The translations under genes were made by a program, and so were the position numbers. A stretch of DNA of 64,000 nucleotides, taken from Heterodontus francisci. Taxonomy: Eukaryota. Of the stretch, positions 461 to 53,636 are shown piece by piece (positions within the stretch are counted from its first letter, which is position 1; every line of letters begins with the position of its first letter). Under the pieces are notes generated by a model that did not search any database, had not been told where the DNA came from, and saw only the letters and a list, made by a program, of their open reading frames with translations. Location of the stretch: the NCBI RefSeq assembly GCF_036365525.1, contig NC_090393.1, positions 20,693,195-20,757,194 of the forward strand. The letters run 5' to 3'.

Positions 461-913
461 TCAAATCTCCCTGCCACCACGGAGACGCAGGTTGATGTTG
501 ATGAGAGAATGGTGCTTAATTTCATAATATTCCAGTGTGTATCTGTCTTCTAGTGGCCTCGACTGAAAGGTCAGGTAGTACTGGTGTGACGAAATGTGCT
601 CCAGGGATTCAATTTTATTTTTCAGACTCAAAACTGTGTCAGTTGGCAACACTTCAATTTTATGCTTACGTCCCTCTGCATTCTTAACGGATATCTCGAT
701 GAATAAGTGGAGTGTTGCATCAAAGAATATTCCAGACTCCAGCAAGGATTTGTTGTCAATGAGCATGGTTTCATTAAACCTCAGGCGTTGCTTGTGAGCT
801 GGAATGTTCTGGTCTTGCTGGATTCGTTCCTTGATCATTGAGATCTTGTTGTCAATGTTGACATTCAGGCGAAATGACAAACCGCCCAGGCCGATGACAA
901 AACCCTTCACTGG
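461..913 (-). CDS. OASL: OASL-A exon 6: tandem ubiquitin-like domains, LRLRGG-REI
   Basis: Acceptor ttttgttctcgtcttag|CCA, phase 0 with exon 5; two UBL patterns; TGA at 461-463. Confidence 0.88.
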   Translation of the reverse strand, partial: PVKGFVIGLGGLSFRLNVNIDNKISMIKERIQQDQNIPAHKQRLRFNETMLIDNKSLLESGIFFDATLHLFIEISVKNAEGRKHKIEVLPTDTVLSLKNKIESLEHISSHQYYLTFQSRPLEDRYTLEYYEIKHHSLININLRLRGGREI

Positions 914-3900
914 CTAAGACGAGAACAAAACATGACATTAAAAATATCTTTTTTTATTTTGGGGGGGCAGCAAAAGACAGTCAGTGATGTTCTTTTTTCA
1001 TAAGTTTTTCAATAATTATATTTCCCTAATTTTCTTGCTGTCTCTCCTGATTGATTCTTGCTGGGGTGATAACCAGACTCCAGTACCTCACAGAAATGGC
1101 CACTGTTCTTGTATAAGCTTAGACAGTAAGTGTTGTTCACCATTCAACAAAGTCTGATCCTGTACTTAACTGATGATCACACATGTACAATATATGGTCA
1201 GTGGGAATCTCAGCTGCTTCTTTCCCCACCTCCCATGCAGGGGTGCTGAGGCCAATTGTAGCAGTCCCACAGTCACCCAGCTGACACCAGCTAATTCAAT
1301 ACGGACTGAGGATTGAAGCTGCGGAGTTTCTGACTTTCCATATGCCTTTAATACTTGACAGCTGGGCTATGATTACCAGCCCAAATGAAAAGAATGAAAT
1401 ATCCAATTAAGGATTGAGGTAAGTGATGAGAACAATGGCCTTTCACCTCAGTGATCTGAATTCCGATCTATTCTCGACAGAAGCAACTCTGGGATCTAAC
1501 AACACAATCTACGGAATTTCTACTATAGACATTGCCTTGTATCAAAACGTTATCATTTATTAAAACTGTTTTACCTGGACATCCCATTCTCGGACTCCAG
1601 AGACACATAGCATGTTCATGCATTTCACGGCCTCATTTACCATCACGTCCCATCCAGTAGATGAAGCAACATTTCCAGTTGGATCAGCTGGGTCAAGAAT
1701 AATTGGCCTGAAAAATAAAAAGGCCAGAGTTTGCTGGAAACTGATGGTGAGTTTAATGATACTCTCTGTTATTAGTGTGGAAATCATCCAGCAATTCTGT
1801 TGCAAGGAAGCGATACCCATGAGTTGCCCATTGCTATAAACTGCTGGTCGATTTGAGCTGCTCTGTCAATAGCTTCACTGTCAACCTCCTTGTGCAGTTC
1901 AAGAAATTGCTGCATTTGTGTATTATTTAGGAATTAACCTCATGCAGAAAGTCAGTGTTCCAACACAGCCACCTGCCTGCCCTGCCTCCAGACTGCACAA
2001 AACAAGGTGATGTTGGCTGTGTCAAGCTGGGGAATGTTGCCCAGAATCTCACTAAGGGGCCTACTCAGAAAAAAGTAAATTCTGCCTTCATTCCTCTTCT
2101 GCTCATCAGGAAACTGGCACACCATTTCTCACTCAGTTTATTGATCTTCCAACTGGGTCCCTTTGAGGCCAAGGATACATGAAATTACAGCCTAGAGAGT
2201 TCTTACCCTCAGCCTCAGCTTTGTCAGTGGCCTTGTGTGGGCCAGGAAGGGGCTCCAGTCCCTAATTCTGGAACCATTTAAGAACCAATAGACACTACAG
2301 AGAAGGGTCTTTCTGGATGGGTGATTTAAGATGGATCGTTCGGCCTTCCTGATCCGTAATTCTATTGTGATATTGTAAATTGCAGCAATTTGCATTTATA
2401 TAGCACTTTTAATTTCATAAACATTCCCAGACATTTCAGACAGAAGAAACAGATGCTGAGCAGGAATAGAATCCGAGGATCTGACCAAAGGTTTTCAGGA
2501 GGTTATTGAAAGTGGGAGAATTTGTAGTGAGGTGAAGAAATTTCTGGAGAGTTCCATAAAGTGGGACCAAAATGGCTGCAAGCTTTGCTACTGATGGCAA
2601 ATAAGAGGAGGTTCAGGGGGAATGAGCTGGAACAATGGCTGGAGGAGGTTGCAGATCAAGTGTAGGATGAAGAGATGAGTTGGTAATGAGATTTGTAAAT
2701 AAGGGTAAAGATTTTAAGACCTTAAAAATTAGTTGAGGAAGGAGCTACAGCAGAATATTTGGTGGGAGTTAAACACGGGCCGGAATTTTACATTGGGTGG
2801 GAGGCCCTGCCCACTGGCTGAAAAGTCGATGATGAGTGTGCCTCCGCTGGGCCTGGGAGCCAGGCTGGGATTTTACAATCCCCAGGTCCTAAACTGGTCT
2901 TGAGTGGGATTTCCACCTCCTTGAGGCAAGAAGTCCCACCTAATGGAGCTGCCGGCCAATCAGTGGGCCGGCAGCTCTTAGTCCCAACAGCACCACCAGG
3001 AGCAGTGGCCACTGCTGGGACTACACCCTGCCATTGGAGGCAAAAGGAAGGATGGCCCTGGAACTCAGGTTAAGTGTTTAGGACCTTGCCGGGGACAATT
3101 GCCTGGGCCCTGGCGAGGCACGTTAGTTGGGTGGAGGTGGAGGGAGGAGAGTGTTGTGCATTGGGGGTGGTTGGAGCTTCTGGGTAGCCCTCTGAGGGGC
3201 ATAGGGTGCCCAATTAGGAGAGCCCACCCCCAGCCTGCAAGAAGGCCACGTTGTTTAACCAGGCAGGGTTCTTGGGGCATTTGCCATCTGGCCACCTGGG
3301 GTAAAATATCCGTGGTGGCGGGAGGGGGCCCTTAAGTGGCAGTTAATTGGCCATGTAAGGGCCTTGATTGGCCTGGGGTGGGCTGGCCGTATCTCGCCTC
3401 TGCCGCCCTGTGTAAAATTGCCGTGGGGGCAACCCCCCCACCTCCCACTCAATTTTACACCCCCTCCACCGCACACCTCCCCCCCCACCCACCCCCCACC
3501 ACCAGCCTGCTCAATGTGGGGGCATAAAATTCCAGCCACAATCTTGCATTACAATGGAGCATTGTCAGGACTGCTGCCTCTTAGGCACATTTTCATACTT
3601 GAACTGTGTGTCAGGTTGACTCTCACTGCTAATATTGAGCTGCACATCCATCACATTCAAATAACGCAGCCAACATGTCACTTATTTGTCACCCATGATG
3701 CCAAAGTTAAGGACAAATATTAACGATCAAGTGAACTGGACCCCAAATATTTCTTGAATCGGCCCCGTTACTTGGGAGCTGTTCAAAGAAGTGAAGCAGC
3801 TCTAATTGGTATAGTTTTAAACAGGGTTGAAGATTTTACCTGTTGCCACTCAGTTTCTTTATTAGAAAGTCTGCAACGACTCTATTATTGACATCGTACT

Positions 3901-6900
3901 CCTTGGTCCAGTAGATGCACAGCTCCTGATATCTGCAGATCAGTTTCAGGACTGTTCGGAAACCATCAGCCATGACAAATCTTTCCTGTCCACTTCCTTG
4001 CTCCCAGGCATAAATAGTCAGCAGCTCCACTGCATACTTAGCAGGCAGGCGTGCTCCAGCTTTCAGCTCAAATTTCCGTGGCTTCACATACTAGGGTAAA
4101 TGGTTGACAAATATAAAGACAGAAATGTGATATTTCAAGTATTCACTCCTCCTCCCATCCTGTATTTTGGTTTCCATACTGTGATATTTTATTATTCTAA
4201 CCGGACCAAACAACTTCCCTGATAGTGCCAGCTGGGGCTATACCCAGCCCAATACTGCTGTATAAGCATTCGCTAAGAAGTCCACCACATCTGCCCAGAA
4301 TGGCCCTCATTCCAACTCTTTCTCGTTCCATTGGATGAACTGCCTAATCTCTGCACAAAGATAAGGCTGAGAAGACAAACTCTCCATGTGGAAACTGTAG
4401 ACATGAACCTATAGAATAGTGGGTTGGAGAGTCAGGAGTCAAAAGAAAGGAAGTTCTTGGAATTAGACTGAACTGAAATTGGGCCTCGGGCATTATCAGC
4501 AAATTGCTGGGAATCTGCGGATGCCAATCAGATACAAAACAGCAGCTCATAGGCTCCAGGAGACCAAAGTTGGGCCAGCTGCCTCTCCAGGAACGGCCAT
4601 CAGATAGTGAGAGGGTGGGGAGGTAGGTGATGGTGGGCCGGCAGCAGTCTTCAGGAATGCTGTGGAACTGGGAGAAGTTCTAGGAAGTGCCTCTTGGCTC
4701 CACATAAAGACAAGTATAAAAAATGTACTTACATTGAGGCCACTTGTCGACGCAAAAATCTGAAGGGGAACAGATCCGATGCGTACGTCACGTCCTTAAA
4801 GAGCCATTAGGCCCCTCATTAATATAGTCAAGGAGCCGAGCGCCTGTTTTGAACAGCTGCCCAGGATACTGTAAATTGTTTGAGGCCATTATAGCATTGG
4901 ACATATTTCAGGCACCTTTGGTGTTGATTTTTGTGCCTATTTCCACTGGAAAAATAGCACAAGTATCAATTTCTAACCCATTGTTTTTCAATTGATCCCT
5001 CAGTTATGAACTAACTTTTGTTTGATTCTCTTTTGCTGTGAATTCTAGAGTTACTTGGCAATGGAAGATTGGATGGAGCCTTTGGTTGTAAATTGAAGGA
5101 TACTGATGAAAAATGGAGAAGGTCACTCGAAGACACACTGTTCAGGGACTGGGTGAAAAGTAAAAGATTTCAGGGTAAAAACCCTGATCCTCACTCCAAA
5201 TGGGAAGCCATGGTCGAAGGATTGAGGCTCCATTTCTGACCATGTTTCTCAGTCCACAAAATATGGGATCAGGGCATTTGCTCTTTAATTGCTTTGAGAA
5301 TCAAGATCTGGTATAACATGTGTTCAACCTAAACCAGAAGATGTACAGGAGTTCTCCCCTTCTTCCAAATTATTTTCAACAGAGGAGAAGCAAGAATCTT
5401 TATTTATTCAAATACTGACACTGACTTTCTATGGGTTTGTCAACCTCCAGTTGTAATTTCAGTGGAGACTGGTGGAACTCCCAGAGAAACAGCACAAATG
5501 GACATTTCTCCAAAAGGTTTGGCTATCTCCCACCATGCAATCATTCCAGGTTTTCATCTGCAGTGTTTGTCAATGGAGTAGCTACTGGTGGAAGTCGAGA
5601 CACAGAAGGAAGCAATCTTTTTATTTTTGGTGCAACAATCCTCCCAAATCCTCCAAGCATTAAACAACTTCCATGTTCCCCAATCACTCACCTGTTTGTA
5701 CCAATATTTTAGCAGGCGAATCAAGTCTTTAAGTTTTGAAGGACGTTGCTTCACAAATTTTCTCTGAAGCTCAGTAAAACAGGCCGAAAATTCCCCATTT
5801 ACATCTTCATTTTCATTTACAAAATTGATCAGCTCGAGATGGGCTACACTTGCATTGTCCTGTCCCACTGCAAGATATTAAATGATTAATGAACATCTTC
5901 CTGCACTTGCAAGTGTATCAGAAGACAGGTACTCAACAAAAGCAATCCAATTAGATCATTACTCTAATAGACCATTTATATCTGCTTTTTAGTGGATGCT
6001 TCCTAATTTATTTAATCTCATGAAAGCTTCTCACATTCCCAAAGGTGCCCACAATTAGGTGTCTATAGATAGAGCCATAGAGTCATTTACGGCGTAGAAG
6101 AAGGCCATTCTCATCCCATCCCACAGTAAGAGGATTGATACTTGACCTGGTCCAAAGTATCTGCAGAGCAAGAAGGTCCCAGGTTTTAGTCCTTATCTCA
6201 GCCAGGGTAGCAGTGGATAACTACAAGTGATCTCAGTGTCCCTGGTTTGGGAAGTGATATAAAATATAGTCAAATATAGTAGTTTTTTGATACCTGATCA
6301 CTACCCAGTGACCCCTTCTGGAAAGTGTACTACGTGTGGCCATCAGATACCAACATAGGAATTCGGAGCAGGAGTTGGCCACTCGGCACTTTGAGCCTGC
6401 TCCGCCATTCAGTAAGTTCCTGGCTGAACTGACTACTCCATATTTCCACCTACTCCTGATAACCTTCCATCCCCTTGCTTATCAAGAATCTATCTTCCTC
6501 TGTCCTTAAAAATATTCAAAAACTCTGTTTCCCATTGCCTTTTAAGGAAGAGAATTCCAAAGACTCAGAACCCTCTGAGAGAAAAAAATCTCTCTTAAAT
6601 GGGCAACACATCTCTTTTCTCACCCTTTGCCCTCTCTAACAGAACACAAATACTGCCAGACATACTGAGTCTTTTCAGCATTTTCTGCTATTATTTCAGA
6701 TTTCCAGCATCCACGGTATTTTGCTTTTGTTTTGCTGTTGACACTCTTGTCTTGGTATGAGAAATGATCAGCTGGGAAAAGTACCAGGGCCTTTTGGTGG
6801 CCAAGAAACGGAATCACTTCCTTTAGAAAAGGAGGGAAAAGAGAACAAATCTCAGACATTAACTTAAAGAAACAATCCTGGGTCGATTTTCAGAGTTATT

Positions 6901-8977
6901 ATCTGAGACTTCCCATCATCATCATTGTGTTAACGCCAATGTTAAAATGATGCCAATCATAAACTGGGGCTAATATGCCTCATGACTTCTCCTGTTAAGG
7001 GTCCGCAATATATCTGTGATAGTCTATTGTATCTGATCCTATCAGAAAAGCGAATTGAAACATATTCCTCCCAACAACAACTCTAATAATAAATGGAACT
7101 CAGCTCTGCATCATCTGAACTAGGAACAGAACATGTGATGGAGCAAAGTGGATAACGTGCACTTTATTCCCGTCTTTCTTGATGAGTAGCAGAGGCTCAT
7201 TGAAGAATTTAAATTAAACTGGAGCTTTAATGATATAAATTGTTATAAATTCTTACTTAATGCATCAAAGGTTGGCAAAACATCAAAATTCACACTGCCT
7301 GAATTCTTCTTTGATTTCAGTGTGAAGCTCATGGATTTTGGCGGGATGCCGCTGTTCTGTGTTATAGTGATATTGATATCACTGATCTCATACGCAATGC
7401 TTGATTTACATATTTCCAGTATTTGCTGAATTTCCTCAAGAATTTCATGCCTGGTTTCCCTCTGGTCCTGGAAATTCTTGAAACAACTGAGGAAGACGAC
7501 CAGATCCGCATCTGAGCCCTCTCTTAAAGCTGTTCCTTTCCCTGATGATCCTCCCTGAGGAGAGGAGGAAGAATAAAACATTATTTATGTATTATTTATA
7601 TTTCAGATACTGGTGAACTTACCCATTCCTTAAATATTGCATAAAGATAACGCCATTTGTTTTCTTCAGTCTTGAACAATCAGGCTCTCTGTATCATTGC
7701 TTTGAGCTCGGAATTCACACTGATACAATGTTTGCTGCCACTTTCCTTTTGATCTTTTCCCTCTTGCCCTCTTTTCATGAAGCTGCTGACTTGCTGAGAC
7801 AGTTTCACGAGCACTCATCAGCAATTCCCCGAATTATCTATTCTTCATATGTGGTCTTTGGCCACAGGTGTCAACAGGCTATTCAACTATGCCGAGAATC
7901 GCAACTCAATTTTGTCCTGTACATATAAAGTAGACTTTCAGCAAAGGTGACTGGAAAGTGAGCAGGATTGGAGACCCTGGGCTGATAGTCCTTCTTACCG
8001 AGTGCGTTGTGGTCAATTTTAACACCTACACCTGTCATCAACAGAGTGGTTTTGCCCTATTTGAGGATTTGGGGGTGTGGGGGGGGGGGCTTGCTATAAT
8101 TCCTGTCTTTCCCATCTTAACCACTGACAGAGCCAGTGCTAAGTCAGAATCTACTAAATAACTTTCTGTTTAAGCATGAGAATAAAATCATAAGATGCAA
8201 ACCACGTCTTTCTCTCTTTCTCTCTGTCTGAATTGGAAACTCACATTATTGTATCCCTTTAGAATTAAAATTGTTTTAAAAGTGTGTTGTCACTTTAAGA
8301 ATTCGAACTCTTGTTGATTTTGAGGAGCATATTTAAAGCATGTTGTACTTTTGACAGCGGTACATCTCAATGAAGTTCTTTAAGAGGAACAGATTTGAAG
8401 TAAATGTTCCCTTTAACAGAAGTCCATCGAAAGGCACAGAACCTTTAAAACAAGCAGGTCAAAAACATTCTGTCCCTTCGGGTAAAAAATCCCCATTTGG
8501 TCCAGATTTTCCGAGAAACATTCGACATCTACACAGAATTCCCAGGAAATGATGGCGATCTCACCCAATCCCGTTAATTTAGATGAGATACTGGAGGCAA
8601 CTGGCACTGGTGGAACTGAATCCCACAGCGAGACCACAACATTTGGAGAAATGGAGTTTAGCGCAGAAAACAGGAAATTTAATGTTTCAAAATGAGCAAT
8701 CACGAGAAAACATCTCCATACTTAAGCAAGGCAAGGTACCTGATATTGAAAATAGTAATTTATTGTAAACACTAGTAATTCCATAATCTCCATGAAAATA
8801 ACTTACTTTAACAGCTCTGATCACTTTGATCGTGGGTTGTTTGATAAAACATCGATTCCTTAAAAAATCGCAGATTCTGTGCACTGCGTTCCTCACTTTG
8901 ATGTTAAATTCATTTGGTTCCAGGTTATTTTTAATGAAATCGTCCAGATTCCTGGGTTCAGTTTCGTATAACCCCAT
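461..8977 (-). CDS. OASL: OASL-like gene copy A: OAS domain + two UBL domains, 493 aa; join complement(8807-8977, 7257-7554, 5692-5867, 3840-4090, 1575-1707, 461-913)
   Basis: Six exons with GT-AG junctions stay in frame (intron phases 0,1,0,2,0; 1482 nt). Kozak accATGG at 8977. OAS motifs: [69 protein letters not shown]. Last exon encodes two UBLs ending [10 protein letters not shown]. Confidence 0.93.
1575..1707 (-). CDS. OASL: OASL-A exon 5
   Basis: Acceptor ttttcag|; [13 protein letters not shown]...WDVQ; donor CAG|GTAAAA. Confidence 0.92.
2778..3537. mobile_element. GC-rich non-autonomous TIR element (Harbinger-like MITE) in OASL intron 4; copy at 31739-32513
   Basis: Termini GGCCGGAATTTTA ... 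TAAAATTCCAGCC. Confidence 0.6.
3840..4090 (-). CDS. OASL: OASL-A exon 4
   Basis: Acceptor ccctag|; [14 protein letters not shown]...GFRTVL...LCIYWT; donor AG|GTAAAA. Confidence 0.92.
5692..5867 (-). CDS. OASL: OASL-A exon 3
   Basis: Acceptor ttgcag|; [11 protein letters not shown]...[11 protein letters not shown]; donor CAG|GTGAGT. Confidence 0.92.
7257..7554 (-). CDS. OASL: OASL-A exon 2 (nucleotidyltransferase core)
   Basis: Acceptor cctcag|; [16 protein letters not shown]; donor A|GTAAGA. Confidence 0.92.
8807..8977 (-). CDS. OASL: OASL-A exon 1 ([16 protein letters not shown]...KVIRAVK)
   Basis: OAS N-terminal LDxFI motif; donor AAA|GTAAGT. Confidence 0.9.
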
Positions 8978-9020: not shown

Positions 9021-9236
9021 CCTTATAAACCAGTTGCCGCGCCTTCTTTAAATATTCCAAAAATAGACGCAATTATTAAGACTTTCCAACTAACATATGA
9101 CATGCTGTCCATCAATGATTTGGATCTCCACCCAGTACAAAGTTTATATTTGCCGCTGATTCCACATCAACCGAAAATCCGTTTCAATTTCCTCAGAAAT
9201 TTCGCTCTGTTGAATTAGCTTTCAGTTTCATTTCCC
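9021..9236 (-). promoter_or_regulatory. OASL-A promoter: TATA-like box and two ISRE clusters
   Basis: Minus strand TTTATAA (about 9023-9029), GGAAATTGAAAC (9181-9192) and GGGAAATGAAACTGAAAGCT (9217-9236) matching GAAANNGAAA. Confidence 0.75.
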
Positions 9237-13430: not shown

Positions 13431-13640
13431 GAAAGGAACCTGAAAGTGAGAGAGATGGGAGCCCAGTACCTGTTACCTGGAGCCAGGTTCTCTCTCTGCT
13501 GCTGACTGCAATGTCATTTCCCGGACACAGAGGGGAGTTTTGGGGAAATGAAAGTTGTTTGTTATAATAGAGCCGGAGATGTCAGGCAATCAGAGTACAG
13601 CAGGGCTGTGACGTTCAGAAAGTGGGTCTGACAATAAAAG
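13431..13640 (+). promoter_or_regulatory. ISG15-A promoter: IRF-E/ISRE-like sites, CRE half-site, TATA-like
   Basis: GAAAGGAACCTGAAAGTGA (13431), GAAATGAAAGT (13545-13555), TGACGT (13609), AATAAAA (13633); the same layout is conserved in the third paralog. Confidence 0.6.
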
Positions 13641-13664
13641 GAGAGGAGGGAGCCAGAGACACAG

Positions 13665-13856
13665 CCAGATCGGATTGTTTCCCGAGAGTGGCAGAGAAAT
13701 CACGGAGCAGTTGAAGCAGAGAGAGTTTTATTCACTCATTGCAGAGAATCGGTGTGAAGGAAAACAGAAAAAACAAACTGCGCAGGAAAAGTGAATCAGA
13801 CACGATTCTACAGAACAACTTCTGATTCACCTGGGCTTGTGCTTCCAGCAAGGATT
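13665..13856 (+). other. ISG15: ISG15-A non-coding exon 1 (start approximate); intron 13857-14857
   Basis: Homologous to 53475-53636; donor |GTGAGG; branch CTGAC and acceptor tcaacag| at 14857. A 5'UTR intron is typical of fish ISG15. Confidence 0.6.
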
Positions 13857-14869
13857 GTGAGGTAGCCTGTCTTTTATTTAGGAATCCCAATATTCTAATT
13901 CTAAACTTTAAAATGGGATGTTTTGAAAATTAATGAAATACACAGTTTAAAATAAGTTATTATTATTATCTGAACCGGGAGAGGAACATTTTAAAAATGC
14001 AACCTGTAAGTTACTGTAGACAATATTAAGCAACGTCTGCTATAATGCATGAAGTATTTATTATCTAATATTATCAGGATAATTCCTTGTTTTTAAATAG
14101 AATGGCTGAGTCTGAGATGAACCATTTCTGTACAGGATAACTCTCTGCTGAGTGGTTTTTACATAACTGGACAGATTTCATTCATGGACCACTGTATCAA
14201 AGAAAACATTCTACTCAATGCAAGGGTGCTTTTCTTGTCTATTGGACTAGAGGTGTCCTGGCTTCTGGTTCAGAGAGTTATATGGGCGGTTTCTTTAATA
14301 TGATCCTGAAACTCTGTGGCCATTTTCCTCCATTTACACACATTCTCTAGATTCTGCTGATGACTTGCTGAGGTTATGGTGGAAGATGAGGAGAAAACCC
14401 ACAGAATTTCTGGGCCCATGTTTTTATGTCCCCATTAACCTGAGTCTCAGACTCTGAAATGTTACACTGAAAGCTTCTTCAGGCGGCTGACCAGTATTGC
14501 AACTCAGTAACCAGCAGACCCTCGAGTTTCTGAAGATTTTATCAATGTCAGGATAGGGCAGCAAAGATACAACCAAATGCAAAAGGCAGAACAGATTGGA
14601 AATCTGCCACTTTTTCTTGGCTGGAAGTAAAGAGTTTGGGAAGAATATTGGTTCCTTCGGGATTCAGATGTCAATAGGAAGGAAGACTTGGGGATTAGTG
14701 TAGGTGAACCTTACACAAGAATTGATCCCAGCTTCTGTCTGTACAGCTAATGCTTGGGAGAATGTGTTGTGAGTTTTAAATTCTATCATTTATTCCTTGC
14801 AATTGATTTGTGATATAAAGTGTCCACATCACTGACATCCTGTTCATTTCTCAACAGCAAGTGAACAAG

Positions 14870-15337
14870 ATGAGACTCCAGGTGAAGTTTATGACCGGTG
14901 AGATTATCGAACTTGTGATCGACCCTTCCATCCAAGTGTCGGCTCTCAAGATGTTGATATTTGAAAAGAGCAAGGTGCCCTATTTCCAACAGCGTCTGAT
15001 GGTGCAAAACGGGAGCAGTGTGGAGCTGAAGGATGACAAGAGGCTGTCCGACTACAATGTCTCTCCCAGCGACGCTGTCCTGCTGCTTGTCAAGAATGAG
15101 CAGTGCATGCAGATATTCCTGCAGAATGACAAGGGGAAAACATCTACATACGACGTTCTTCCCTCTGAGTCAGTTCAGGCTTTTAGAGCACGAGTACAAC
15201 GGCAGGAGGGTGTCCCAGCCAACCAGCAGCGCCTGATGTATGAGGGGAAACAGCTGGAAGATGGTCGATTGCTCTCTGACTACAATATTCAGCCTCAGGG
15301 CACCATCTTTCTCCTGCTACGTCTACGGGGGGGTTAA
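14870..15337 (+). CDS. ISG15: ISG15-like di-ubiquitin protein copy A, 155 aa, ends LRLRGG*
   Basis: Two UBL domains; FQQRL in N-lobe, [16 protein letters not shown] in C-lobe (fish ISG15-like); aagATG just after the splice acceptor. Confidence 0.9.
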
Positions 15338-29424: not shown

Positions 29425-29877
29425 TCAGATCCCCCTGCCACCACGGAGACGCAGGTTGATGTTGATGGTACAATGATGCTTAATTTTGTAATATTCCAGT
29501 GTGTATCTGTCATCTAGCTTCATCGTCTGAAAGGTCAGGTAGTACTGGTGTGACGGAATGCGCTCCAGGGATTCAATTTTATTTTTCAGACTCAAAACTG
29601 TGTCAGTTGGCAACACATTAATTGTCAGGTTACGTCCCTCTGCATTCTTAACGAATATCTCCATGAATAAGTGGAGTGTTGCATCAAAGAATATTCCAGA
29701 CTCCAGCAAGGATTTGTTGTCAATGAGCATGGTTTCATTAAACCTCAGGCGTTGCTTGTGAGCTGGAATGTTCTGGTCTTGCTGGATTCGTTCCTTGATC
29801 ATTGAGATCTTGTTGTCAATGTTGACATTCAGGCGAAATGAGAAACCGTCCAGGCCGATGACAAAACCCTTCACTGG
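29425..29877 (-). CDS. OASL: OASL-B exon 6: tandem UBLs, LRLRGG-RGI
   Basis: Acceptor cttag|CCA; 18 substitutions versus A. Confidence 0.88.
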   Translation of the reverse strand, partial: PVKGFVIGLDGFSFRLNVNIDNKISMIKERIQQDQNIPAHKQRLRFNETMLIDNKSLLESGIFFDATLHLFMEIFVKNAEGRNLTINVLPTDTVLSLKNKIESLERIPSHQYYLTFQTMKLDDRYTLEYYKIKHHCTININLRLRGGRGI

Positions 29878-32800
29878 CTAAGACGAGAACAAAACAGAAG
29901 ATAGAAATTTTTTTGTGGGGTGGGGGGGGGCAGCAAAAGGCAGTCAGTGATGTTCTTTTTTCATAAGTTTTTCAATAATTATATTTCCCTAATTTTCTTG
30001 CTGTCTCTCCTGATTGATTCTTGCTGGGGTGATAACCAGACTCCAGTACCTCACAGAAATGGCCACTGTTCTTGTATAAGCTCAGACAGTAAGTGTTGTT
30101 CACCATTCAACAAAGTCTGATCCTGTACTTAACTGATGATCACACACGTACAATATATGGTCAGTGGGAATCTCAGCTGCTTCTTTCCCCACCTCCCATG
30201 CAGGGGTGCTGAGGCCAATTGTAGCAGTCCCACGGTCACCCAGCTGACACCAGCTAATTCAATACGGACTGAGGATTGAAGCTGCGGAGTTTCTGACTTT
30301 CCATATGCCTTTAATACTTGACAGCTGGGCTATGATTACCAGCCCAAATGAAAAGAATGAAATATCCAATTAAGGATTGAGGTAAGTGATGAGAACAATG
30401 GCCTTTCACCTCAGTGATCTGAATTCCGATCTATTCTCGACAGAAGCAACTCTGGGATCTAACAACACAATCTACGGAATTTCTACTATAGACATTGCCT
30501 TGTATCAAAACGTTATCATTTATTAAAACTGTTTTACCTGGACATCCCATTCTCGGACTCCAGAGACACATAGCATGTTCAAGCATTTCATGGCCTCATT
30601 TACCATCACGTCCCATCCAGTAGATGAAGCAACATTTCCAGTTGGATCAGCTGGGTCAAGAATAATTGGCCTGAAAAATAAAAAGGCCAGAGTTTGCTGG
30701 AAACTGATGGTGAGTTTAATGATACTCTCTGTTATTAGTGTGGAAATCATCCAGCAATTCTGTTGCAAGGAAGCGATACCCATGAGTTGCCCATTGCTAG
30801 AAACTGCTGGTCGATTTGAGCTGCTCTGTCAATAGCTTCACTGTCAACCTCCCTGTGCAGTTCAAGAAATTGCTGCATTTGTGTATTATTTAGGAATTAA
30901 CCTCATGCAGAAAGTCAGTGTTCCAACACAGCCACCTGCCTGCCCTGCCTCCAGACTGCACAAAACAAGGTGATGTTGGCTGTGTCAAGCTGGGGAATGT
31001 TGCCCAGAATCTCACTAAGGGGCCTACTCAGAAAAAAATAAATTCTGCCTTCATTCCTCTTCTGCTCATCAGAAAACTGGCACACCATTTCTCACTCAGT
31101 ATATTGATCTTCCAACTGGGTCCCTTTGAGGCCAAGGATACATGAAATTACAGCCTAGAGAGTTCTTACCCTCAGCCTCAGCTTTGTCAGTGGCCTTGTG
31201 TGGGCCAGGAAGGGGCTCCAGTCCCTAATTCTGGAACCATTTAAGAACCAATAGACACGACAGAGAAGGGTCTTTCTGGATGGGTGATTTAAGATGGATC
31301 GTACGGCCTTCCTGATCCGTAATTCTATTGTGATATTGTAAATTGCAGCAATTTGCATTTATATAGCACTTTTAATTTCATAAACATTCCCAGACATTTC
31401 AGACAGAAGAAACAGATGCTGAGCAGGAATAGAATCCGAGGATCTGACCAAAGGTTTTCAGGAGGTTATTGAAAGTGGGAGAATTAGTAGAGGTGAAGAA
31501 ATTTCTGGAGAGTTCCATAAAGTGGGACCAAAATGGCTGCAAGCTTTGCTACTGATGGCAAATAAGAGGAGGTTCAGGGGGAATGAGCTGGAACAATGGC
31601 TGGAGGAGGTTGCAGATCAAGTGTAGGATGAAGAGATGAGTTGGTAATGAGATTTGTAAATAAGGGTAAAGATTTTAAGACCTTAAAAATTAGTTGAGGA
31701 AGGAACTACAGCAGAATATTTGGTGGGAGTTAAACACGGGCCGGAATTTTACATTGGGTGGGAGGCCCTGCCCACTGGCTGAAAAGTCGATGATGAGTGT
31801 GCCTCCGCTGGGCCTGGGAGCCAGGCTGGGATTTTACAATCCCCAGGTCCTAAACTGGTCTTGAGTGGGATTTCCACCTCCTTGAGGCAAGAAGTCCCAC
31901 CTAATGGAGCTGCCGGCCAATCAGTGGGCCGGCAGCTCTTAGTCCCAACAGCACCACCAGGAGCACTGCTGGGACTACACCCTGCCATTGGAGGCAAAAG
32001 GAAGGATGGTCCTGGAACTCAGGTTAAGTGTTTAGGACCTCGCCGGGGACAATTGGCCGGGCCCTGGCGAGGCAAGTTAGTTGGGTGGGGGTGGGGGGAG
32101 GAGAGTGTTGTGCGTTGGGGGTGGTTGGAGCTTCTGGGTAGCCCTCTGAGGGGCATAGGGTGCCCAATTAGGAGAGCCCACCCCCAGCCTGCAAGAAGGC
32201 CACGTTGTTTAACCAGGCAGGGTTCTTGGGGCATTTGCCATCTGGCCACCCGGGGTAAAATATCCGTGGTGGCGGGAGGAGGCCCTTAAGTGGCAGTTAA
32301 TTGGCCATGTAAGGGCCTTGATTGGCCTGGGGTGGGCTGGCCGTTTCTCGCCTCTGCCGCCCTGTGTAAAATTGCCGTGGGGGCGGAACGGGGTCAGGAA
32401 TAGTAACCCCCCACCTCCCACTCAATTTTACACCCCCTCCACTGCACACCTCCCCCCCCCCGCCCCACCCACCACCACCAGCCTGCTCAATGTGGGGGCA
32501 TAAAATTCCAGCCACAATCTTGCATTACAATGTAGCATTGTCAGGACTGCTGCCTCTTAGGCACATTTTCATACTTGAACTGTGTGTCAGGTTGACTCTC
32601 ACTGCTAATATTGAGCTGCACATCCATCACATTCAAATAGCGCAGCCAACATGTCACTTATTTGTCACCCATGATGCCAAAGTTAAGGACAAATATTAAC
32701 CATCAAGTGAACTGGACCCCAAATATTTCTTGAATCGGCCCCGTTACTTGGGAGCTGTTCAAAGAAGTGAAGCAGCTCTAATTGGTATAGTTTCAAACAT

Positions 32801-35800
32801 GGTTGAAGATTTTACCTGTTGCCACTCAGTTTCTTTATTAGAAAGTCTGCAACGACTCTATTATTGACATCGTACTCCTTGGTCCAGTAGATGCACAGCT
32901 CCTGATATCTGCAGATCAGTTTCAGGACTGTTCGGAAACCATCAGCCATGACAAATCTTTCCTGTCCACTTCCTTGCTCCCAGGCATAAATAGTCAGCAG
33001 CTCCACTGCATACTTAGCAGGCAGGCGTGCTCCAGCTTTCAGCTCAGATTTCCGTGGCTTCACATACTAGGGTAAATGGTTGACAAATATAAAGACAGAA
33101 ATGTGATATTTCAAATATTCACTCCTCCACCCATCCTGTATTTTTGTTTCCATGCTGTTATCTTTTATTATTCTAACCGGACCAAACAACTTCCCTGATA
33201 GTACCAGCCGGGGATATACCCAGCCCAATACTGCTGTATAAGCATTCGCTAAGAAGTCCACCACATCTGCCCAGAATGGCCCTCATTCCAACTCTTTCTC
33301 GTTCCATTGGATGAACTGCCTAATCTCTGCACAAAGATAAGGCTGAGAAGACAAACTCTCCATGTGGAAACTGTAGACATGAACCTATAGAATAGTGGGT
33401 TGGAGAGTCAGGAGTCAAAAGAAAGGAAGTTCTTGGAATTAGACTGAACTGAAATTGGGCCTCGGGCATTATCAGCAAATTGCTGGGAATCTGCGGATGC
33501 CAATCAGATATAAAACAGCAGCTCATAGGCTCCAGGAGACCAAAGTTGGGCCAGCTGCCTCTCCAGGAACGGCCATCAGATAGTGAGAGGGTGGGAGGTA
33601 GGTGATGGTGGGCCGGCAGCAGTCTTCAGGAATGCTGTGGAACTGGGAGAAGTTCTAGGAAGTGCCTCTTGGCTCCACATAAAGACAAGTATAAAAAATG
33701 TACTTACATTGAGGCCACTTGTCGACGCAAAAATCTGAAGGGGAACAGATCCGATGCGTACGTCACGTCCTTAAAGAGCCATTAGGCCCCTCATTAATAT
33801 AGTCAAGGAGCCGAGCGCCTGTTTTGAACAGCTGCCCAGGATACTGTAAATTGTTTGAGGCCATTATAGCATTGGACATATTTCAGGCACCTTTGGTGTT
33901 GATTTTTGTGCGTATTTCCACTGGAAAAATAGCACAAGTATCAATTTCTAACTCATTGTTTTTCAATTGATCCCTCAGTTATGAACTAACTTTTGTTTGA
34001 TTCTCTTTTGCTGTGAATTCTAGAGTTACTTGGCAATGGAAGATTGGATGGAGCCTTTGGTTGTAAATTGAAGGATACTGATGAAAAATGGAGAAGGTCA
34101 CTCTAAGACACACTGTTCAGGGACTGGGTGAAAAGTAAAAGATTTCAGGGTAAAAACCCTGATCCTCACTCCAAATGGGAAGCCATGGTCGAAGGATTGA
34201 GGCTCCATTTCTGACCTGTTTCTCAGTCCACAAAATATGGGATCAGGGCATTTGCTCTTTAATTGCTTTGAGAATCAAGATCTGGTCTAACATGTGTTCA
34301 ACCTAAACCATAAGATGTACAGGAGTTCTCCCCTTCTTCCAAATTATTTTCAACAGAGGAGAAGCAAGAATCTTTAATTATTCCAAATACTGACACTGAC
34401 TTTCTATGGGTTTGTCAACCTCCAGTTGTAATTTCAGTGGAGACTGGTGGAACTCCCAGAGAAACAGCACAAATGGACATTTCTCCAAAAGGTTTGGCTA
34501 TCTCCCACCATGCAATCATTCCAGGTTTTCATCTGTAGTGTTTGTCAATGGAGTAGCTACTGGTGGAAGTCGAGACACAGAAGGAAGCAATCTTTTTATT
34601 TTTGGTGTAACAATCCTCCCAAATCCTCCAAGCATTAAACAACTTCCATGTTCCCCAATCACTCACCTGTTTGTACCAATATTTTAGCAGGCGAATCAAG
34701 TCTTTAAGTTTTGAAGGACGTTGCTTCACAAATTTTCTCTGAAGCTCAGTAAAACAGGCCGAAAATTCCCCATTTACATCTTCATTTTCATTTACAAAAT
34801 TGATCAGCTCGAGATGGGCTACACTTGCATTGTCCTGTCCCACTGCAAGATATTAAATGATTAATGAACATCTTCCTGCACTTGCAAGTGTATCAGAAGA
34901 CAGGTACTCAACAAAAGCAATCCAATTAGATCATTACTCTAATAGACCATTTATATCTGCTTTTTAGTGGATGCTTCCTAATTTATTTAATCTCATGAAA
35001 GCTTCTCACATTCCCAAAGGTGCCCACAATTAGGTGTCTATAGGTAGAGCCATAGAGTCATTTACGGCGTAGAAGAAGGCCATTCACATCCCATCCCACA
35101 GTAAGAGGATTGATACTTGACCTGGTCCAAAGTATCTGCAGAGCAAGAAGGTCCCAGGTTTTAGTCCTTATCTCAGCCAGGGTAGCAGTGGATAACTACA
35201 AGTGATCTCAGTGTCCCTGGTTTGGGAAGTGATATAAAATATAGTCAAATATAGTAGTTTTTTGATACCTGATCACTACCCAGTGACCCCTTCTGGAAAG
35301 TGTACTACGTGTGGCCTTCAGATACCAACATAGGAATTCGGAGCAGGAGTTGGCCACTCGGCACTTTGAGCCTGCTCTGCCATTCAGTAAGTTCCTGGCT
35401 GAACTGACTACTCCACATTTCCACCTACTCCTGATAACCTTCCATCCCCTTGCTTATCAAGAATCTATCTTCCTCTGTCCTTAAAAATATTCAAAAACTG
35501 TTTCCATTGCCTTTTAAGGAAGAGAATTCCAAAGACTCAGGACCCTAGAACATAGAACATAGAACATTACAGCGCAGTACAGGCCCTTCAGCCCTCGATG
35601 TTGCCGACCTGTGAAACCATCTGACCTACACTATTCCATTTTCATCCATATGTCTATCCTCTGAGAGAAAAAAATCTCTCTTAAATGGGCAACACATCTC
35701 TTTTCTCACCCTTTGCCCTCTCTAACAGAACACAAATACTGCCAGACATACTGAGTCTTTTCAGCATTTTCTGCTATTATTTCAGATTTCCAGCATCCAC

Positions 35801-38230
35801 GGTATTTTGCTTTTGTTTTGCTGTTGACACTCTTGTCTTGGTATGAGAAATGATCAGCTGGGAAAAGTACCAGGGCTTTTTGGTGGATAAGAAACTGAAT
35901 CACTTCCTTTAGAAAAGGAGGGAATAGAACGATTCTCAGACATTAACTTAACGAAACAATCCTGGGTCGATTTTCAGAGTTATTATCTGAGACTTCCCAT
36001 CATCATCATTGTGTTAACGCCAATGTTAAAATGATGCCAATCATAAACTGGGGCTAATATGCCTCATGACTTCTCCTGTTAAGGGTCCGCAATATATCTG
36101 TGATAGTCTATTGTATCTGATCCTATCAGAAAAGCGAATTGAAACATATTCCTCCCAACAACAACTCTAATAATAAATGGAACTCAGCTCTGCATCATCT
36201 GAACTAGGAACAGAACATGTGATGGAGCAAAGTGGATAACGTGCACTTTATTCCCGTCTTTCTTGATGAGTAGCAGAGGTTCATTGAAGAATTTAAATTA
36301 AACTGGAGCTTTAATGATATAAATTGTTATAAATTCTTACTTAATGCATCAAAGGTTGGCAAAACATCAAAATTCACACTGCCTGAATTCTTCTTTGATT
36401 TCAGTGTGAAGCTCATGGATTTTGGCGGGATGCCGCTGTTCTGTGTTATAGTGATATTGATATCACTGATCTCATACGCAATGCTTGATTTACATATTTC
36501 CAGTATTTGCTGAATTTCCTCAAGAATTTCATGCCTGGTTTCCCTCTGGTCCTGGAAACTCTTGAAACAACTGAGGAAGACGACCAGATCCGCATCTGAG
36601 CCCTCTCTTAAAGCTGTTCCTTTCCCTGATGATCCTCCCTGAGGAGAGGAGGAAGAATAAAGCATTATTTATGTATTATTTATATTTCAGATACTGGTGA
36701 ACTTACCCATTCCTTAAATATTGCATAAAGATAACGCCATTTGTTTTCTTCAGTCTTGAACAATCAGGCTCTCTGTATCATTGCTTTGAGCTCGGAATTC
36801 ACACTGATACAATGTTTGCTGCCACTTTCCTTTTGATCTTTTCCCTCTTGCCCTCTTTTCATGAAGCTGCTGACTTGCTGAGACAGTTTCACGAGCTCTC
36901 ATCAGCAATTCCCCGAATTATCTATTCTTCATATGTGGTCTTTGGCCACAGGTGTCAACAGGCTATTCAACTATGCCGAGAATCGCAACTCAATTTTGTC
37001 CTGTACATATAAAGTAGACTTTCAGCAAAGGTGACTGGAAAGTGAGCAGGATTGGGGACCCTGGGCTGATAGTCCTTCTTACCGAGTGTGTTGTGGTCAA
37101 TTTTAACACCTACACCTGTCATCAACAGAGTGGTTTTGCCCTATTTGAGGATTTGGGGAGGGGGGGGGGGGGTGCGGGAGGGCTTGGTTTAATTCCTTGC
37201 CTTTCCCATCTTAACCACTGACAGAGCCAGTGCTAAGTCAGAATCTGCTAAATAACTTTCTGTTTAAGCATGAGAATAAAATCATAAGATGCAAACCACG
37301 TCTTTCTCTCTTTCTCTCTCTCTGACATTTTACAAAGTGAACAGCTTTTAATAGGGGTGAAGCCACTAACTAACATTTCGCTCAGGTCTGTTCTCGCCTC
37401 CTTTCCTTGTACAAGAGTAAATGTGACATATTCACGATGTTGTTTCTTCACTGCAGCTGACTGGAGACGGGGTGAATGGAGACTGAATTGGAAACTCACA
37501 TTACTGTATCCCTTTAGAATTAAAATTGTTTTAAAAGTGTGTTGTCACTTTAAGAATTCGAACTCTTGTTGATTTTGAGGAGCATATTTAAAGCATGTTG
37601 TACTTTTGACAGCGGTACATCTCAATGAAGTTCTTTAAGAGGAACAGATTTGAAGTAAATGTTCCCTTTAACTGAAGTACATCGAAAGGCACAGAACCTT
37701 TAAAACAAGCAGGTCAAAAACATTCTGTCCCTTCGGGTAAAAAATCCCCATTTGGTCCAGATTTTCCTGGAAACATGTGACATTCGACATCTACACAGAA
37801 TTCCCAAGAAATGATGGCGATCCCGTTAATTTAGATGAGATACTGGAGGCAACTGGCACTGGTGGAACTGAATCCCACAGCGAGACCACAACATCTGGAG
37901 AAAAGGGAGTTTAGCGCAGAAAACAGGAAATTTAATGTTTCAAAATGAGCAATCACGAGAAAACATCTCCATACTTAAGCAAGGCAAGGTACCTGATATT
38001 GAAAATAGTAATTTATTGTAAACACTAGTAATTCCATAATCTCCATGAAAATAACTTACTTTAACAGCTCTGATCACTTTGATCGTGGGTTGTTTGATAA
38101 AACATCGATTCCTTAAAAAATCGCAGATTCTGTGCACTGCGTTCCTCACTTTGATGTTAAATTCATTTGGTTCCAGGTTATTTTTAATGAAATCGTCCAG
38201 ATTCCTGGGTTCAGTTTCGTATAACCCCAT
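29425..38230 (-). CDS. OASL: OASL-like gene copy B, 493 aa; join complement(38060-38230, 36341-36638, 34667-34842, 32816-33066, 30538-30670, 29425-29877)
   Basis: Same exon sizes and splice sites as copy A; catalytic motifs intact; ends [10 protein letters not shown]. Confidence 0.93.
30538..30670 (-). CDS. OASL: OASL-B exon 5
   Basis: [13 protein letters not shown]; two substitutions versus A. Confidence 0.92.
32816..33066 (-). CDS. OASL: OASL-B exon 4
   Basis: One substitution (F>S) versus A. Confidence 0.92.
34667..34842 (-). CDS. OASL: OASL-B exon 3
   Basis: Same peptide and splice sites as A. Confidence 0.92.
35547..35657 (-). mobile_element. Short CR1-type 3' end inserted only in OASL-B intron 2
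   Basis: (AGAACAT)3 tail, flanked by CCT duplication; empty site at about 6571 in unit A. Confidence 0.65.
36341..36638 (-). CDS. OASL: OASL-B exon 2
   Basis: [16 protein letters not shown]; one substitution (N>S) versus A. Confidence 0.92.
38060..38230 (-). CDS. OASL: OASL-B exon 1
   Basis: Same peptide as copy A; accATGG; donor GTAAGT. Confidence 0.9.
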
Positions 38231-38489: not shown

Positions 38490-38899
38490 CAGTTAGCATA
38501 GGATGATAATATCGCGGTGGCTCCGTTACGTGCGGTCCGCACAGGCAGACCACCACAGTTCATGGCAGCGGACAAGTAAAATGCAGCCCAATATCTTCTA
38601 ATGTGGCTTGGTGTCATGTTTTGTTCAAATGCTCCTGTGAATCTCCTTGGGACATTTTATTATATTAGAGGTGCTCTATAAATAAAGGTTGTTGTTGTTG
38701 AAACATCAATTTACATGTCCTTCCTCAAAGCTAATACAAAATATTTGCTGCTCACGCTGCAGTCTCCTCTGCATTAGTGAAACCAATTAGCAGATTAGGT
38801 GATCGCATTGCTGAACGCCTCTGTTCTGTCGACTAGTGTGACATCAAACTCCCGGTCATTGGCCAATCCATCCCATTTCCACTCACACTCAGGCCACTC

Positions 38900-42165: not shown

Positions 42166-42375
42166 GAAAGGAACCTGAAAGTGAGAGAGATGGGAGCCCA
42201 GTAGCTGTTACCTGGAGCCAGGTTCTCTCTCTGCTGCTGACTGCAATGTCATTTCCCGGACACAGAGGGGAGTTTTGGGGAAATGAAAGTTGTTTGTTAT
42301 AATAGAGCCGGAGATGTCAGGCAATCAGAGTACAGCAGGGCTGTGACGTTCAGAAAGTGGGTCTGACAATAAAAG
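42166..42375 (+). promoter_or_regulatory. ISG15-B promoter
   Basis: Copy of 13431-13640; GAAATGAAAGT at 42280-42290; non-coding exon ends 42591, acceptor at 43592. Confidence 0.6.
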
Positions 42376-43604
42376 GAGAGCAGGGAGCCAGAGACACAGC
42401 CAGATCGGATTGTTTCCCGAGAGTGGCAGAGAAATCACGGAGCAGTTGAAGCAGAGAGAGTTTTATTCACTCATTGCAGAGAATCGGTGTGAAGGAAAAC
42501 AGAAAAAACAAACTGCGCAGGAAAAGTGAATCAGACACGATTCTACAGAACAACTTCTGATTCACCTGGGCTTGTGCTTCCAGCAAGGATTGTGAGGTAG
42601 CCTGTCTTTTATTTAGGAATCCCAATATTCTAATTCTAAACTTTAAAATGGGATGTTTTGAAAATTAATGAAATACACAGTTTAAAATAAGTTATTATTA
42701 TTATCTGAACCGGGAGAGGAACATTTTAAAAATGCAACCTGTAAGTTACTGTAGACAATATTAAGCAACGTCTGCTATAATGCATGAAGTATTTATTATC
42801 TAATATTATCAGGATAATTCCTTGTTTTTAAATAGAATGGCTGAGTCTGAGATGAACCATTTCTGTACAGGATAACTCTCTGCTGAGTGGTTTTTACATA
42901 ACTGTACAGATTTCATTCATGGACCACTGTATCAAAGAAAACATTCTACTCAATGCAAGGGTGCTTTTCTTGTCTATTGGACTAGAGGTGTCCTGGCTTC
43001 TGGTTCAGAGAGTTATATGGGTGGTTTCTTTAATATGATCCTGAAACTCTGTGGCCATTTTCCTCCATTTACACACATTCTCTAGATTCTGCTGATGACT
43101 TGCTGAGGTTATGGTGGAAGATGAGGAGAAAACCCACAGAATTTCTGGGCCCATGTTTTTATGTCCCCATTAACCTGAGTCTCAGACTCTGAAATGTTAC
43201 ACTGAAAGCTTCTTCAGGCGGCTGACCAGTATTGCAACTCAGTAACCAGCAGACCCTCGAGTTTCTGAAGATTTTATCAATGTCAGGATAGGGCAGCAAA
43301 GATACAACCAAATGCAAAAGGCAGAACAGATTGGAAATCTGCCACTTTTTCTTGGCTGGAAGTAAAGAGTTTGGGAAGAATATTGGTTCCTTCGGGATTC
43401 AGATGTCAATAGGAAGGAAGACTTGGGGATTAGTGTAGGTGAACCTTACACAAGAATTGATCCCAGCTTCTGTCTGTACAGCTAATGCTTGGGAGAATGT
43501 GTTGTGAGTTTTAAATTCTATCATTTATTCCTTGCAATTGATTTGTGATATAAAGTGTCCACATCACTGACATCCTGTTCATTTCTCAACAGCAAGTGAA
43601 CAAG

Positions 43605-44072
43605 ATGAGACTCCAGGTGAAGTTTATGACCGGTGAGATTATCGAACTTGTGATCGACCCTTCCATCCAAGTGTCGGCTCTCAAGATGTTGATATTTGAA
43701 AAGAGCAAGGTGCCCTATTTCCAACAGCGTCTGATGGTGCAAAACGGGAGCAGTGTGGAGCTGAAGGATGACAAGAGGCTGTCCGACTACAATGTCTCTC
43801 CCAGCGACGCTGTCCTGCTGCTTGTCAAGAATGAGCAGTGCATGCAGATATTCCTGCAGAACGACAAGGGGAAAACATCTACATACGACGTTCTTCCCTC
43901 TGAGTCAGTTCAGGCTTTTAGAGCACGAGTACAACGGCAGGAGGGTGTCCCAGCCAACCAGCAGCGCCTGATGTATGAGGGGAAACAGCTGGAAGATGGT
44001 CGGTTGCTCTCTGACTACAATATTCAGCCTCAGGGCACCATCTTTCTCCTGCTACGTCTACGGGGGGGTTAA
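43605..44072 (+). CDS. ISG15: ISG15-like copy B, 155 aa, protein identical to copy A
   Basis: Only two synonymous differences from 14870-15337 were seen. Confidence 0.9.
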
Positions 44073-53228: not shown

Positions 53229-53450
53229 GAAATGAAACAGAAACCGAAACAAATCAGGGCCAGTGCCTGTTATCAGCTGCAAAACTCTATCTGCTGCTGA
53301 TTCTGAGATCATTTTCCAGACACAGGGGAGTTTTGGAGAAACGAAACTTAGCTCAGATCTCACTTGTTTATTCTAACCGATCGGGAGAGCGTTAGTCAAT
53401 CAGAGGGCAGCGGGGCTGTGACGTTTAGAAACTGGGTTTGAGAATAAAAG
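53229..53450 (+). promoter_or_regulatory. ISG15-C promoter with strong tandem ISREs
   Basis: GAAATGAAACAGAAACCGAAAC (53229-53250), GAAACGAAAC (53338-53347), TGACGT (53419), AATAAAA (53443). Confidence 0.8.
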
Positions 53451-53474
53451 GAAGAAGGCAGAGGATTGTTTAAC

Positions 53475-53636
53475 AGAGAGAAATACAGTAGAGAGGAGTT
53501 GAAGCAGAGAGAGATTTATTCACTGATTCCAGCCAGATCTGAGAGAGAAAAACGCAGAAAGCAAACTGCGCAGAAAAGTGAATCAGAAAAAACTCTGCAG
53601 ATCAACTTTTCGGGACTTGTACATCCAGCGAGGACT
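53475..53636 (+). other. ISG15: ISG15-C non-coding exon 1 (start approximate); intron 53637-56232
   Basis: Canonical donor |GTGAGT; homologous to the exon 1 of copies A and B. Confidence 0.6.

Follow-up and report, generated by a model that had tools for sequence, protein, structure and literature searches.

An amniote ISG15-type recognition face on the terminal UBL domain of OASL in the shark Heterodontus francisci

Related OASL and ISG15 systems and the shark cluster

OASa.U, or OASL, has been placed across the jawed vertebrates and OASa of the elephant shark has been tested in yeast (PMC10400998). Its domain order, P-loop, aspartates and tandem UBL are the same as those of the shark OASL proteins described here. 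The word ISG15 does not occur in the main text of that study, and no analysis of the UBL lobes was found in it; it does report that ray-finned fish lost OAS-RNase L, and these fish therefore have no linked OASL. Like shark OASL, the chicken OASL tandem UBL (PDB 7SBI) ends in LRLRGG followed by a tail, and the chicken protein conjugates to itself and to other proteins in chicken cells (PMC8764230). Chicken OASL is also the best natural single-domain PDB match for the shark OASL query (57.1 bits). It differs, however, in that avian UBL2 has a QQRL-type strand (R42, E49 and L70 in the finch) where the shark tail has Y42, P49 and N70, and birds are without ISG15 whereas sharks have both ISG15 and OASL.

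In human ISG15 the residues W123, T125, P130, F149 and N151 correspond to ubiquitin R42, I44, Q49, H68 and V70 (bioRxiv 2023.04.06.535837), and positions in C-lobes and terminal UBLs are given below in the latter numbering. A preliminary description of the locus had given W123 and P130 as the human specificity residues, which that source confirms, and had assigned fish ISG15 a QQ-type strand; R and Q are reported for the W and P sites of fish ISG15 (PMC6240716). The amniote ISG15 C-lobe resembles the shark OASL tail in its aromatic residues at 41/42, in T44, P49 and N70 (the last toggling between N and H) and, in geckos and turtles, in H64. It differs in that shark OASL has Y and not W at 42, no F68 and another scaffold at residues 1-35 and 55-63, and in that the shark face is attached to OAS whereas amniote ISG15 is free. 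In the literature searched, which included few subscription journals, nothing was found on an exchange of lobes between ISG15 and OASL, on ISG15/OASL linkage or on shark OASL tails. Two metagenome scans for further ISG15 sequences returned nothing, and ESM Atlas gave generic ubiquitin clusters alone. Both gene families at the shark locus are known; a description of this arrangement, with the amniote ISG15 face on shark OASL, was not found.

The window, which is the whole stretch of 64,000 nucleotides that was analysed, contains OASL-A (minus strand), ISG15-1 (plus), OASL-B (minus), ISG15-2 (plus) and ISG15-3 (plus) in this order. A unit of about 29 kb is present twice with copies that are 97-98% identical, and OASL-A and ISG15-1 lie head to head with starts about 4.2 kb apart. 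OASL-A and OASL-B each encode 493 aa from six GT-AG exons. In OASL-A the OAS exons are located at 8977-8807, 7554-7257, 5867-5692, 4090-3840 and 1707-1575 (span 1575..8977, minus strand), and the last exon (461..913, minus strand) has a phase-0 acceptor and comprises UBL1, UBL2, the tail REI and the stop. UBL1 and UBL2 are predicted to form two beta-grasp domains (mean pLDDT 83.5). The splice joint 913/1575 is crossed by contigs of all four public runs and a single contig of one run carries OASL-A from 9251 to 469; these joints are read from contigs presumed to be RNA, whose depth is not a measure of expression level. ISRE-like elements lie at the 5' end of the gene (9181..9236, minus strand) according to a pattern scan run without a shuffle control, and run contigs begin near 9250.

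The OAS part of OASL-A contains a P-loop ([13 protein letters not shown]) and the FDVLP aspartates, and the P-loop with three catalytic aspartates ([18 protein letters not shown]) was found in OASL. The order NTase, OAS1_C and then UBL agrees with OASa.U/OASL, and one of the OAS exons shares 99% identity with a database protein from H. francisci. OASL-A and OASL-B are both found letter for letter inside the database model P0005 (PF01909, PF10421, PF00240). This model joins three OAS genes and crosses the antisense of ISG15-1 (window 14789-15169, minus strand; residues 495-840), a fusion that is likely an annotation artefact which hides ISG15.

ISG15-1 begins with a non-coding exon 1 (13470..13861, plus strand) that includes an ISRE-like element at 13545 and is spliced to 14858, a joint present in contigs of three of the four runs. 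Its exon 2 (14858..15337, plus strand) holds the CDS (14870-15337) for a protein of 155 aa ending in LRLRGG-stop, with Q41, R42, M44, Q49, F68 and L70 in the C-lobe (15107-15334, plus strand). ISG15-2 (42205..44072, plus strand; exon 1 42205-42596, CDS 43605-44072) encodes an identical protein, and ISG15-3 (53229..56718, plus strand) combines an ISRE-like cluster (53229-53350), an exon-1-like segment (53364-53608) and a CDS (56245-56718) ending in LRLRGGFL. ISRE-like elements lie upstream of ISG15 in a scan without a control and its contigs are spliced; interferon may induce these genes. The plus-strand genes encode free tandem UBLs with LRLRGG in which both lobes group with amniote ISG15, and the three C-lobes read [35 protein letters not shown], which bears out their earlier description as ubiquitin-like. 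A search of the shark genome, in which 23 candidates were scored, found no ISG15 outside the window. An HNF1-family gene is located 28 Mb away on the same contig as the window and agrin is on contig C37; zebrafish and human ISG15 have been stated to be syntenic (PMC5381560).

On the minus strand, 21-30 kb to the left of the window (contig C23, approximately 20,663,900-20,671,700), is another OAS gene, which has a single UBL and a CaaX-like end. It ends in a UBL1-type domain, which also has YYL at 41-43, and the CaaX-like SWCILM; such ends are also present in other sharks, the coelacanth and caecilians, and the shark gene is reminiscent of the human OAS1 isoform that is prenylated. A long tandem repeat of low complexity separates the shark gene from OASL-A, and retroelement-like ORFs are found approximately 10-17 kb left of the window. 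Within the window, the segments 22770-24100, 38799-41417 and 50946-52483 contain what we presume from motifs to be LINE-type reverse transcriptase pieces and a gag-like ORF.

The arrangement of these families varies in other vertebrates. Three Latimeria models (P0131, P0267, P0051) consist of OAS and a tandem UBL of which both lobes are of the arginine type and group with ISG15, and if the gene models are right a coelacanth OASL would have taken up a whole ISG15 exon. In the snake Candoia one model (P0172) joins an OAS3-like gene to ISG15 on one strand, possibly by an annotation merge, unlike the shark locus, where all OAS genes run on one strand and ISG15 on the other. Such a fusion may be the squamate clade of UBL-bearing OAS (PMC10400998). 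Some amphibian OAS models (P0024, P0144, P0269) have UBL2 alone without UBL1 and end in LRLRGG or a close variant, with P49 in the caecilian.

The recognition face of the shark OASL tail

The terminal UBL2 of OASL-A (473..700, minus strand) is an open domain of 76 aa that ends in LRLRGG and carries Y41, Y42, T44, P49, H64, N68 and N70. Its sequence contains VKN..GR...EV..T.TV..LK, YYLTF, PLED and NLRLRGG, exactly the motif on which the preliminary description had based the likeness to mammalian ISG15. OASL-B (29425..38230, minus strand; 493 aa) has its UBL2 at 29437-29664 with Y41, Y42, T44, K49, H64 and N70, followed by the tail RGI. At positions 42/44/49/68/70 the residues are Y, T, P, N, N in OASL-A, Y, T, K, N, N in OASL-B and R, M, Q, F, L in shark ISG15. 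The equivalents of T125, P130 and N151 in OASL-A are thus exact (T44, P49, N70), and since copy B has K49 the PLED motif is not fixed. The W123 and F149 states are absent from OASL UBL2, which has the similar but not identical Y42 as well as N68, and F68 sits instead in shark ISG15.

The spread of the face was assessed in three sets of filtered terminal lobes. Among chondrichthyans 76 UBL domains in 28 proteins yielded 35 OASL terminal lobes, among reptile ISG15 62 domains in 33 proteins yielded 28 C-lobes, and among lungfish and tetrapod OASL 19 domains in 9 proteins yielded 8 lobes, 7 of them distinct, the mammalian ones having been dropped. For the control, 1136 domains from 110 unrelated proteins were reduced to 440 divergent UBLs. 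An aromatic residue at 41 together with Y42 is present in 35/35 chondrichthyan tails, and the aromatic 41/42 pair occurs in 28/28 reptile C-lobes, 0/7 lungfish/tetrapod OASL tails and 0/440 unrelated UBLs. The shared states are five, aromatic 41, aromatic 42, P49, H64 and N70, at sites picked post hoc after the data had been seen. All 35 chondrichthyan tails and 27/28 reptile C-lobes have three to five of these states, the lungfish/tetrapod tails have none or one (7/7), and at least three are found in 0/440 unrelated UBLs, three of which have two. Taken singly, the states are infrequent in the control (aromatic 41 1.6%, aromatic 42 3.0%, P49 12.7%, H64 2.3%, N70 2.0%), in which Q41 is conserved in 401/440. 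P49 is labile, being found in 22/35 chondrichthyan tails and 5/28 reptile C-lobes. Over the 35 shark tails position 49 takes 7 states and position 68 takes 12, and position 70 toggles between N and H in the shark OASL and reptile ISG15 lineages alike. The likeness of shark OASL to the amniote ISG15 face is real, lineage-wide and beyond ordinary drift.

OASL-A and OASL-B differ at 15/76 residues in UBL2, 2/71 in UBL1 and 4/343 in the OAS domain, a pattern of divergence from which the lobe is taken to be both an older block and either weakly constrained or diversifying. Positive selection on UBL2 between the copies was considered and is not significant (pN 0.104, pS 0.069, pN/pS 1.5, Fisher p 0.79). 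When 266-700 is compared with 29230-29664, the upstream sequence is 96-100% identical save for one gapped acceptor block and the stretch from UBL2 into the 3' UTR is 87-96% identical, the residue differences including 47-49. In one run the segment 474-591 is matched by an A-type contig (0 differences) and upstream by a B-type contig only; these contigs, whose records are possibly filtered, suggest an OASL recombinant with its break within codons 37-47 of UBL2. The codon at the human P130 site (window 554-556) encodes Pro in A, Lys in B and Met in a related organism (two runs).

Descent and exchange of the C-lobe

The preliminary description had explained the likeness by a reciprocal exchange of entire C-lobes between ISG15 and OASL through one inversion, an account that now appears barely credible. 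In the trees 18 reptile ISG15 lobes (of 33) stand in for the amniotes, with mammalian, teleost, lungfish and amphibian ISG15 absent. Over residues 1-71 reptile ISG15 shares 54% of its residues with shark ISG15 as against 35% with shark OASL (53%/40% for 36-71 and 63%/45% for 50-71), and the OASL tails of non-mammalian tetrapods and lungfish are 37% identical to shark OASL and 36% to shark ISG15. The C-lobe tree (49 rows) unites reptile ISG15, shark ISG15 and the coelacanth lobe with support of 97/93, a branch that receives 87/88 when the tree is cut to 29 rows. The N-lobe tree (33 rows) again groups reptile ISG15, shark ISG15 and the coelacanth lobe (95/90) and puts shark OASL UBL1 on one side of a branch with the other OAS-attached UBL1 domains (90/95), so that the N-lobes behave as had been stated. 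The separate phylogenies of N- and C-lobes that had been put forward as a check are therefore congruent (95/90 and 97/93) and go against the proposal. In PDB searches a reptile ISG15 profile scores up to 157 bits with mammalian ISG15, up to 146 with di-ubiquitin and 124 with chicken OASL.

The decisive evidence comes from residues 1-35, the 35/36 split having been set after looking at the alignment. These residues reject the swap tree with p-AU of 0.024 (free constrained trees) and 0.011 and 0.042 (fixed species trees), and reptile ISG15 is there 54% identical to shark ISG15 as against 31% to shark OASL. In the same half N.KG.TSTY.VLPS..V..F..RV is common to reptile and shark ISG15, and tortoise and caecilian OASL have TVLSLK.KIE in common with shark OASL. 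Pooling all 71-76 columns favours the exchange to the extent that the swap tree is not rejected over the whole lobe (p-AU 0.42, 0.37, 0.26 and 0.39), but it escapes rejection because residues 36-71 pull the opposite way. An exchange of whole lobes requires both halves to fit the swap tree and is therefore not supported; likewise, orthology of OASL UBL2 with the ISG15 C-lobe over the whole lobe fails at residues 1-35. What survives of the original proposal is a break near residue 34-36, as the best-fitting tree of the distal half.

Of four fixed species trees, the one that places a reciprocal exchange on the stem of lungfish and tetrapods gives residues 36-71 the best fit, with a gain over orthology of 8.3 and 9.3 lnL, orthology itself not being rejected (p-AU 0.24 and 0.16). 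Residues 36-54 alone, a segment picked post hoc, reject orthology (p-AU 0.003 and 0.039), residues 55-71 give a tie, and the best suffix favouring the swap begins at residue 34. The sites for the swap are 37, 41, 42, 49, 64 and 70 and those for orthology 55, 58 and 63. Removal of the E1-contact sites 42, 44, 49, 68 and 70 reduces residues 36-71 to a tie (0.2 and 1.0 lnL), with 37, 41 and 64 still strongly backing the swap tree, a result matched by 0/60 orthology simulations. The observed distal conflict was reached by 0/150 orthology simulations and by 0/100 under each of two models; the trees behind these runs, and behind the swap runs of 100 replicates below, had been fitted to the observed data, a source of bias toward conflict, and a repeat on fixed trees agreed (0/60, two models). 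A pure distal swap fits poorly too, as its simulations reached the observed total in 0/100 and 5/100 cases and the three strong orthology sites (55, 58, 63) in 0/60 under either model. Reptile ISG15 residues A38, YEGK 45-48, K55, D58, N60 and P63 match shark or coelacanth ISG15. In PDB searches the first half of OASL-A UBL2 finds chicken OASL as its best single natural domain (19.5 bits, with no ISG15 in the top 60) and the second half finds mammalian ISG15 (20.8 bits versus 18.9 for chicken OASL), preferences that rest on small margins. The predicted fold was tried as a discriminator and rejected, as di-ubiquitin, ISG15 and chicken OASL are matched alike (TM 0.45-0.52). Overall, the distal half is a mosaic and neither simple history accounts for the pattern.

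The favoured reading, at just under an even chance, is that the likeness arose by convergent remodelling of the face read by E1 enzymes and deconjugases. The shark OASL UBL2 would be a domain of the OASL lineage whose recognition face converged on the amniote ISG15 residues, and amniote ISG15 would have gained the same face later and on its own. In residues 1-35 shark UBL2 clusters with the OASL tails, the states in common lie at or beside positions read by E1 enzymes and deconjugases (42, 44, 49, 70), and convergence needs no extra event. The CaaX-ended OAS of sharks also has aromatic residues at 41/42 of its UBL1-type domain, and a coelacanth one has Y42. Viral OTU proteases read the ISG15 face, with 130 and 149-151 as selectivity sites (PMC6927636), and so does USP18 (PMC6240716). 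Against convergence, the orthology simulations never gave the distal conflict and Q41 is rarely lost; these simulations include no convergent selection and therefore cannot separate convergence from exchange. With Glu in place of Ala138 in shark USP18, it is unlikely that a common USP18 pocket drove the convergence.

A tentative alternative, held at somewhat under an even chance, is that from residue 34-36 or thereabouts the distal part of OASL UBL2 replaced that of a linked ISG15 on the amniote lineage, whether by crossing-over of the inverted exons or through conversion tracts, with the N-lobe-facing residues 55-63 restored or re-adapted afterwards. The switch of signal at residue 34, the rank of the exchange tree for residues 36-71, the split of the half-domain PDB scores and the rarity with which Q41 and E64 change in such a way all argue for it. 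A later restoration is conceivable for 58-61, which face the N-lobe (58, 60 and 61 in converted numbering are interface positions; PMC8764230). The locus also appears prone to shuffling: the coelacanth has OAS with an entire ISG15-type exon, the OASL last exon and the ISG15 exon both have phase-0 acceptors, copies A and B diverge in a block beginning at UBL2 and contigs suggest an A/B recombinant at codons 37-47. ISG15 and an OAS3-like gene are on equal-sized listed contigs in 10/11 reptile species with sizes given for both (Lepidochelys kempii being the exception), a linkage deduced from those contig sizes and from fused gene models. However, orthology is not rejected for 36-71, a pure distal swap fits poorly, and the ISG15-type residues of reptiles at 38, 45-48, 55, 58, 60 and 63 are interleaved with the shared sites. 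As 7/7 lungfish/tetrapod OASL tails have none or one of the five states, a one-way donor must have been lost, and nesting of amniote ISG15 within these tails is rejected (p-AU 0.004-0.005). Reciprocity depends on the single site L70; the corollary, also part of the original proposal, that the QQ-type tetrapod OASL tails came from an ISG15 donor is weak, since QQRL is the ubiquitin state and L70 the only unique derived share. No conversion tract is seen in the present shark ISG15/OASL DNA, where 12-22/30 bases are identical per full 30-base block.

It is improbable that the aromatic face was instead already present on an additional OASL or ISG15 paralogue before sharks and bony vertebrates diverged, and was distributed by differential loss or by reversion to the residues of ubiquitin-like type. 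Such a history would suit the birth and death with conversion by which OAS genes evolve (PMC10400998), and residues 36-76 fit a tree in which shark OASL plus reptile ISG15 forms the sister group of the other OASL tails about as well as they fit the swap tree; yet this history needs an exact return to Q41 and R42 in shark and teleost ISG15, the coelacanth exon and tetrapod OASL, and a swap placed on the stem of the chondrichthyans has a poorer fit (p-AU 0.05-0.06, 36-71). Convergence is placed ahead of exchange within the lobe because the lnL gain of the exchange comes almost entirely from five functional sites and is explicable by selection; the weights given to these two readings are our judgement and not computed.

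Predicted conjugation of the tail and its meaning for ISG15

Ubiquitin residues at four or five ISG15 sites let UBA1 charge ISG15 (bioRxiv 2023.04.06.535837). By analogy with the residues of human ISG15, Y42, T44, P49 and N70 would stop UBA1 from charging the tail of shark OASL, and as in chicken OASL the three-residue tail may be trimmed and the protein conjugated via LRLRGG. The shark OASL tail is thus predicted to be kept out of the ubiquitin-activating pathway and still to be conjugatable. A divergent single-exon E1 UFD (C44:7,976,156-7,976,428, minus strand) scores 37 bits with UBA1 and gives no match to UBA7, and is possibly UBA7; no exons tied to it were found upstream within 50 kb, and a search for the UBA7 pattern ETAYLL gave three matches, none of them convincing.

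Fish USP18 has a polar pocket suited to ISG15 of the R/Q type and cross-reacts with ubiquitin (PMC6240716). The shark resembles this teleost pair in its ISG15 residues R42/Q49 and in a Glu at the mouse Ala138 position of USP18, and differs in that Leu142 is retained in shark USP18, as His251 appears to be from its motif alone. The USP18-like gene is spread over approximately 210 kb (C18:88,701,000-88,911,000, minus strand), and all four PDB matches of one of its exons are USP18 (E 0.016-0.1). This exon reads QHDAEELFL where mouse has QHDAAQLYL, with Glu at Ala138, a mapping that takes chain position 88 as residue 133 on the basis of construct length. The exon with Ser192 was looked for and not found. 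From this one residue and the polar pocket of fish USP18, shark USP18 likely pairs with ISG15 and not with the OASL tail, and shark ISG15 would, like that of teleosts, keep an arginine/glutamine face and work with a USP18 that has a polar pocket.

The W123/P130 face governs the choice of E1 for ISG15, of the host protease that takes it off and of the viral proteases able to cleave it, and for the origin of this face from the R/Q face of fish the literature searched holds no explanation. Possibly, though at less than an even chance, amniote ISG15 captured the face from a linked OASL tail by recombination within the lobe and sharks preserve the earlier arrangement; if so, the conjugation tag on shark OASL would be orthogonal and the face of shark ISG15 would have stayed ubiquitin-like. 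Two separate origins in interferon-induced LRLRGG modifiers would make the face a clean example of convergence; the other option is its transfer from one linked gene to another. The presence of ISG15 inside the shark OAS cluster, its linkage to OAS in reptiles and its fusion to OAS in the coelacanth models bear on the origin of ISG15.
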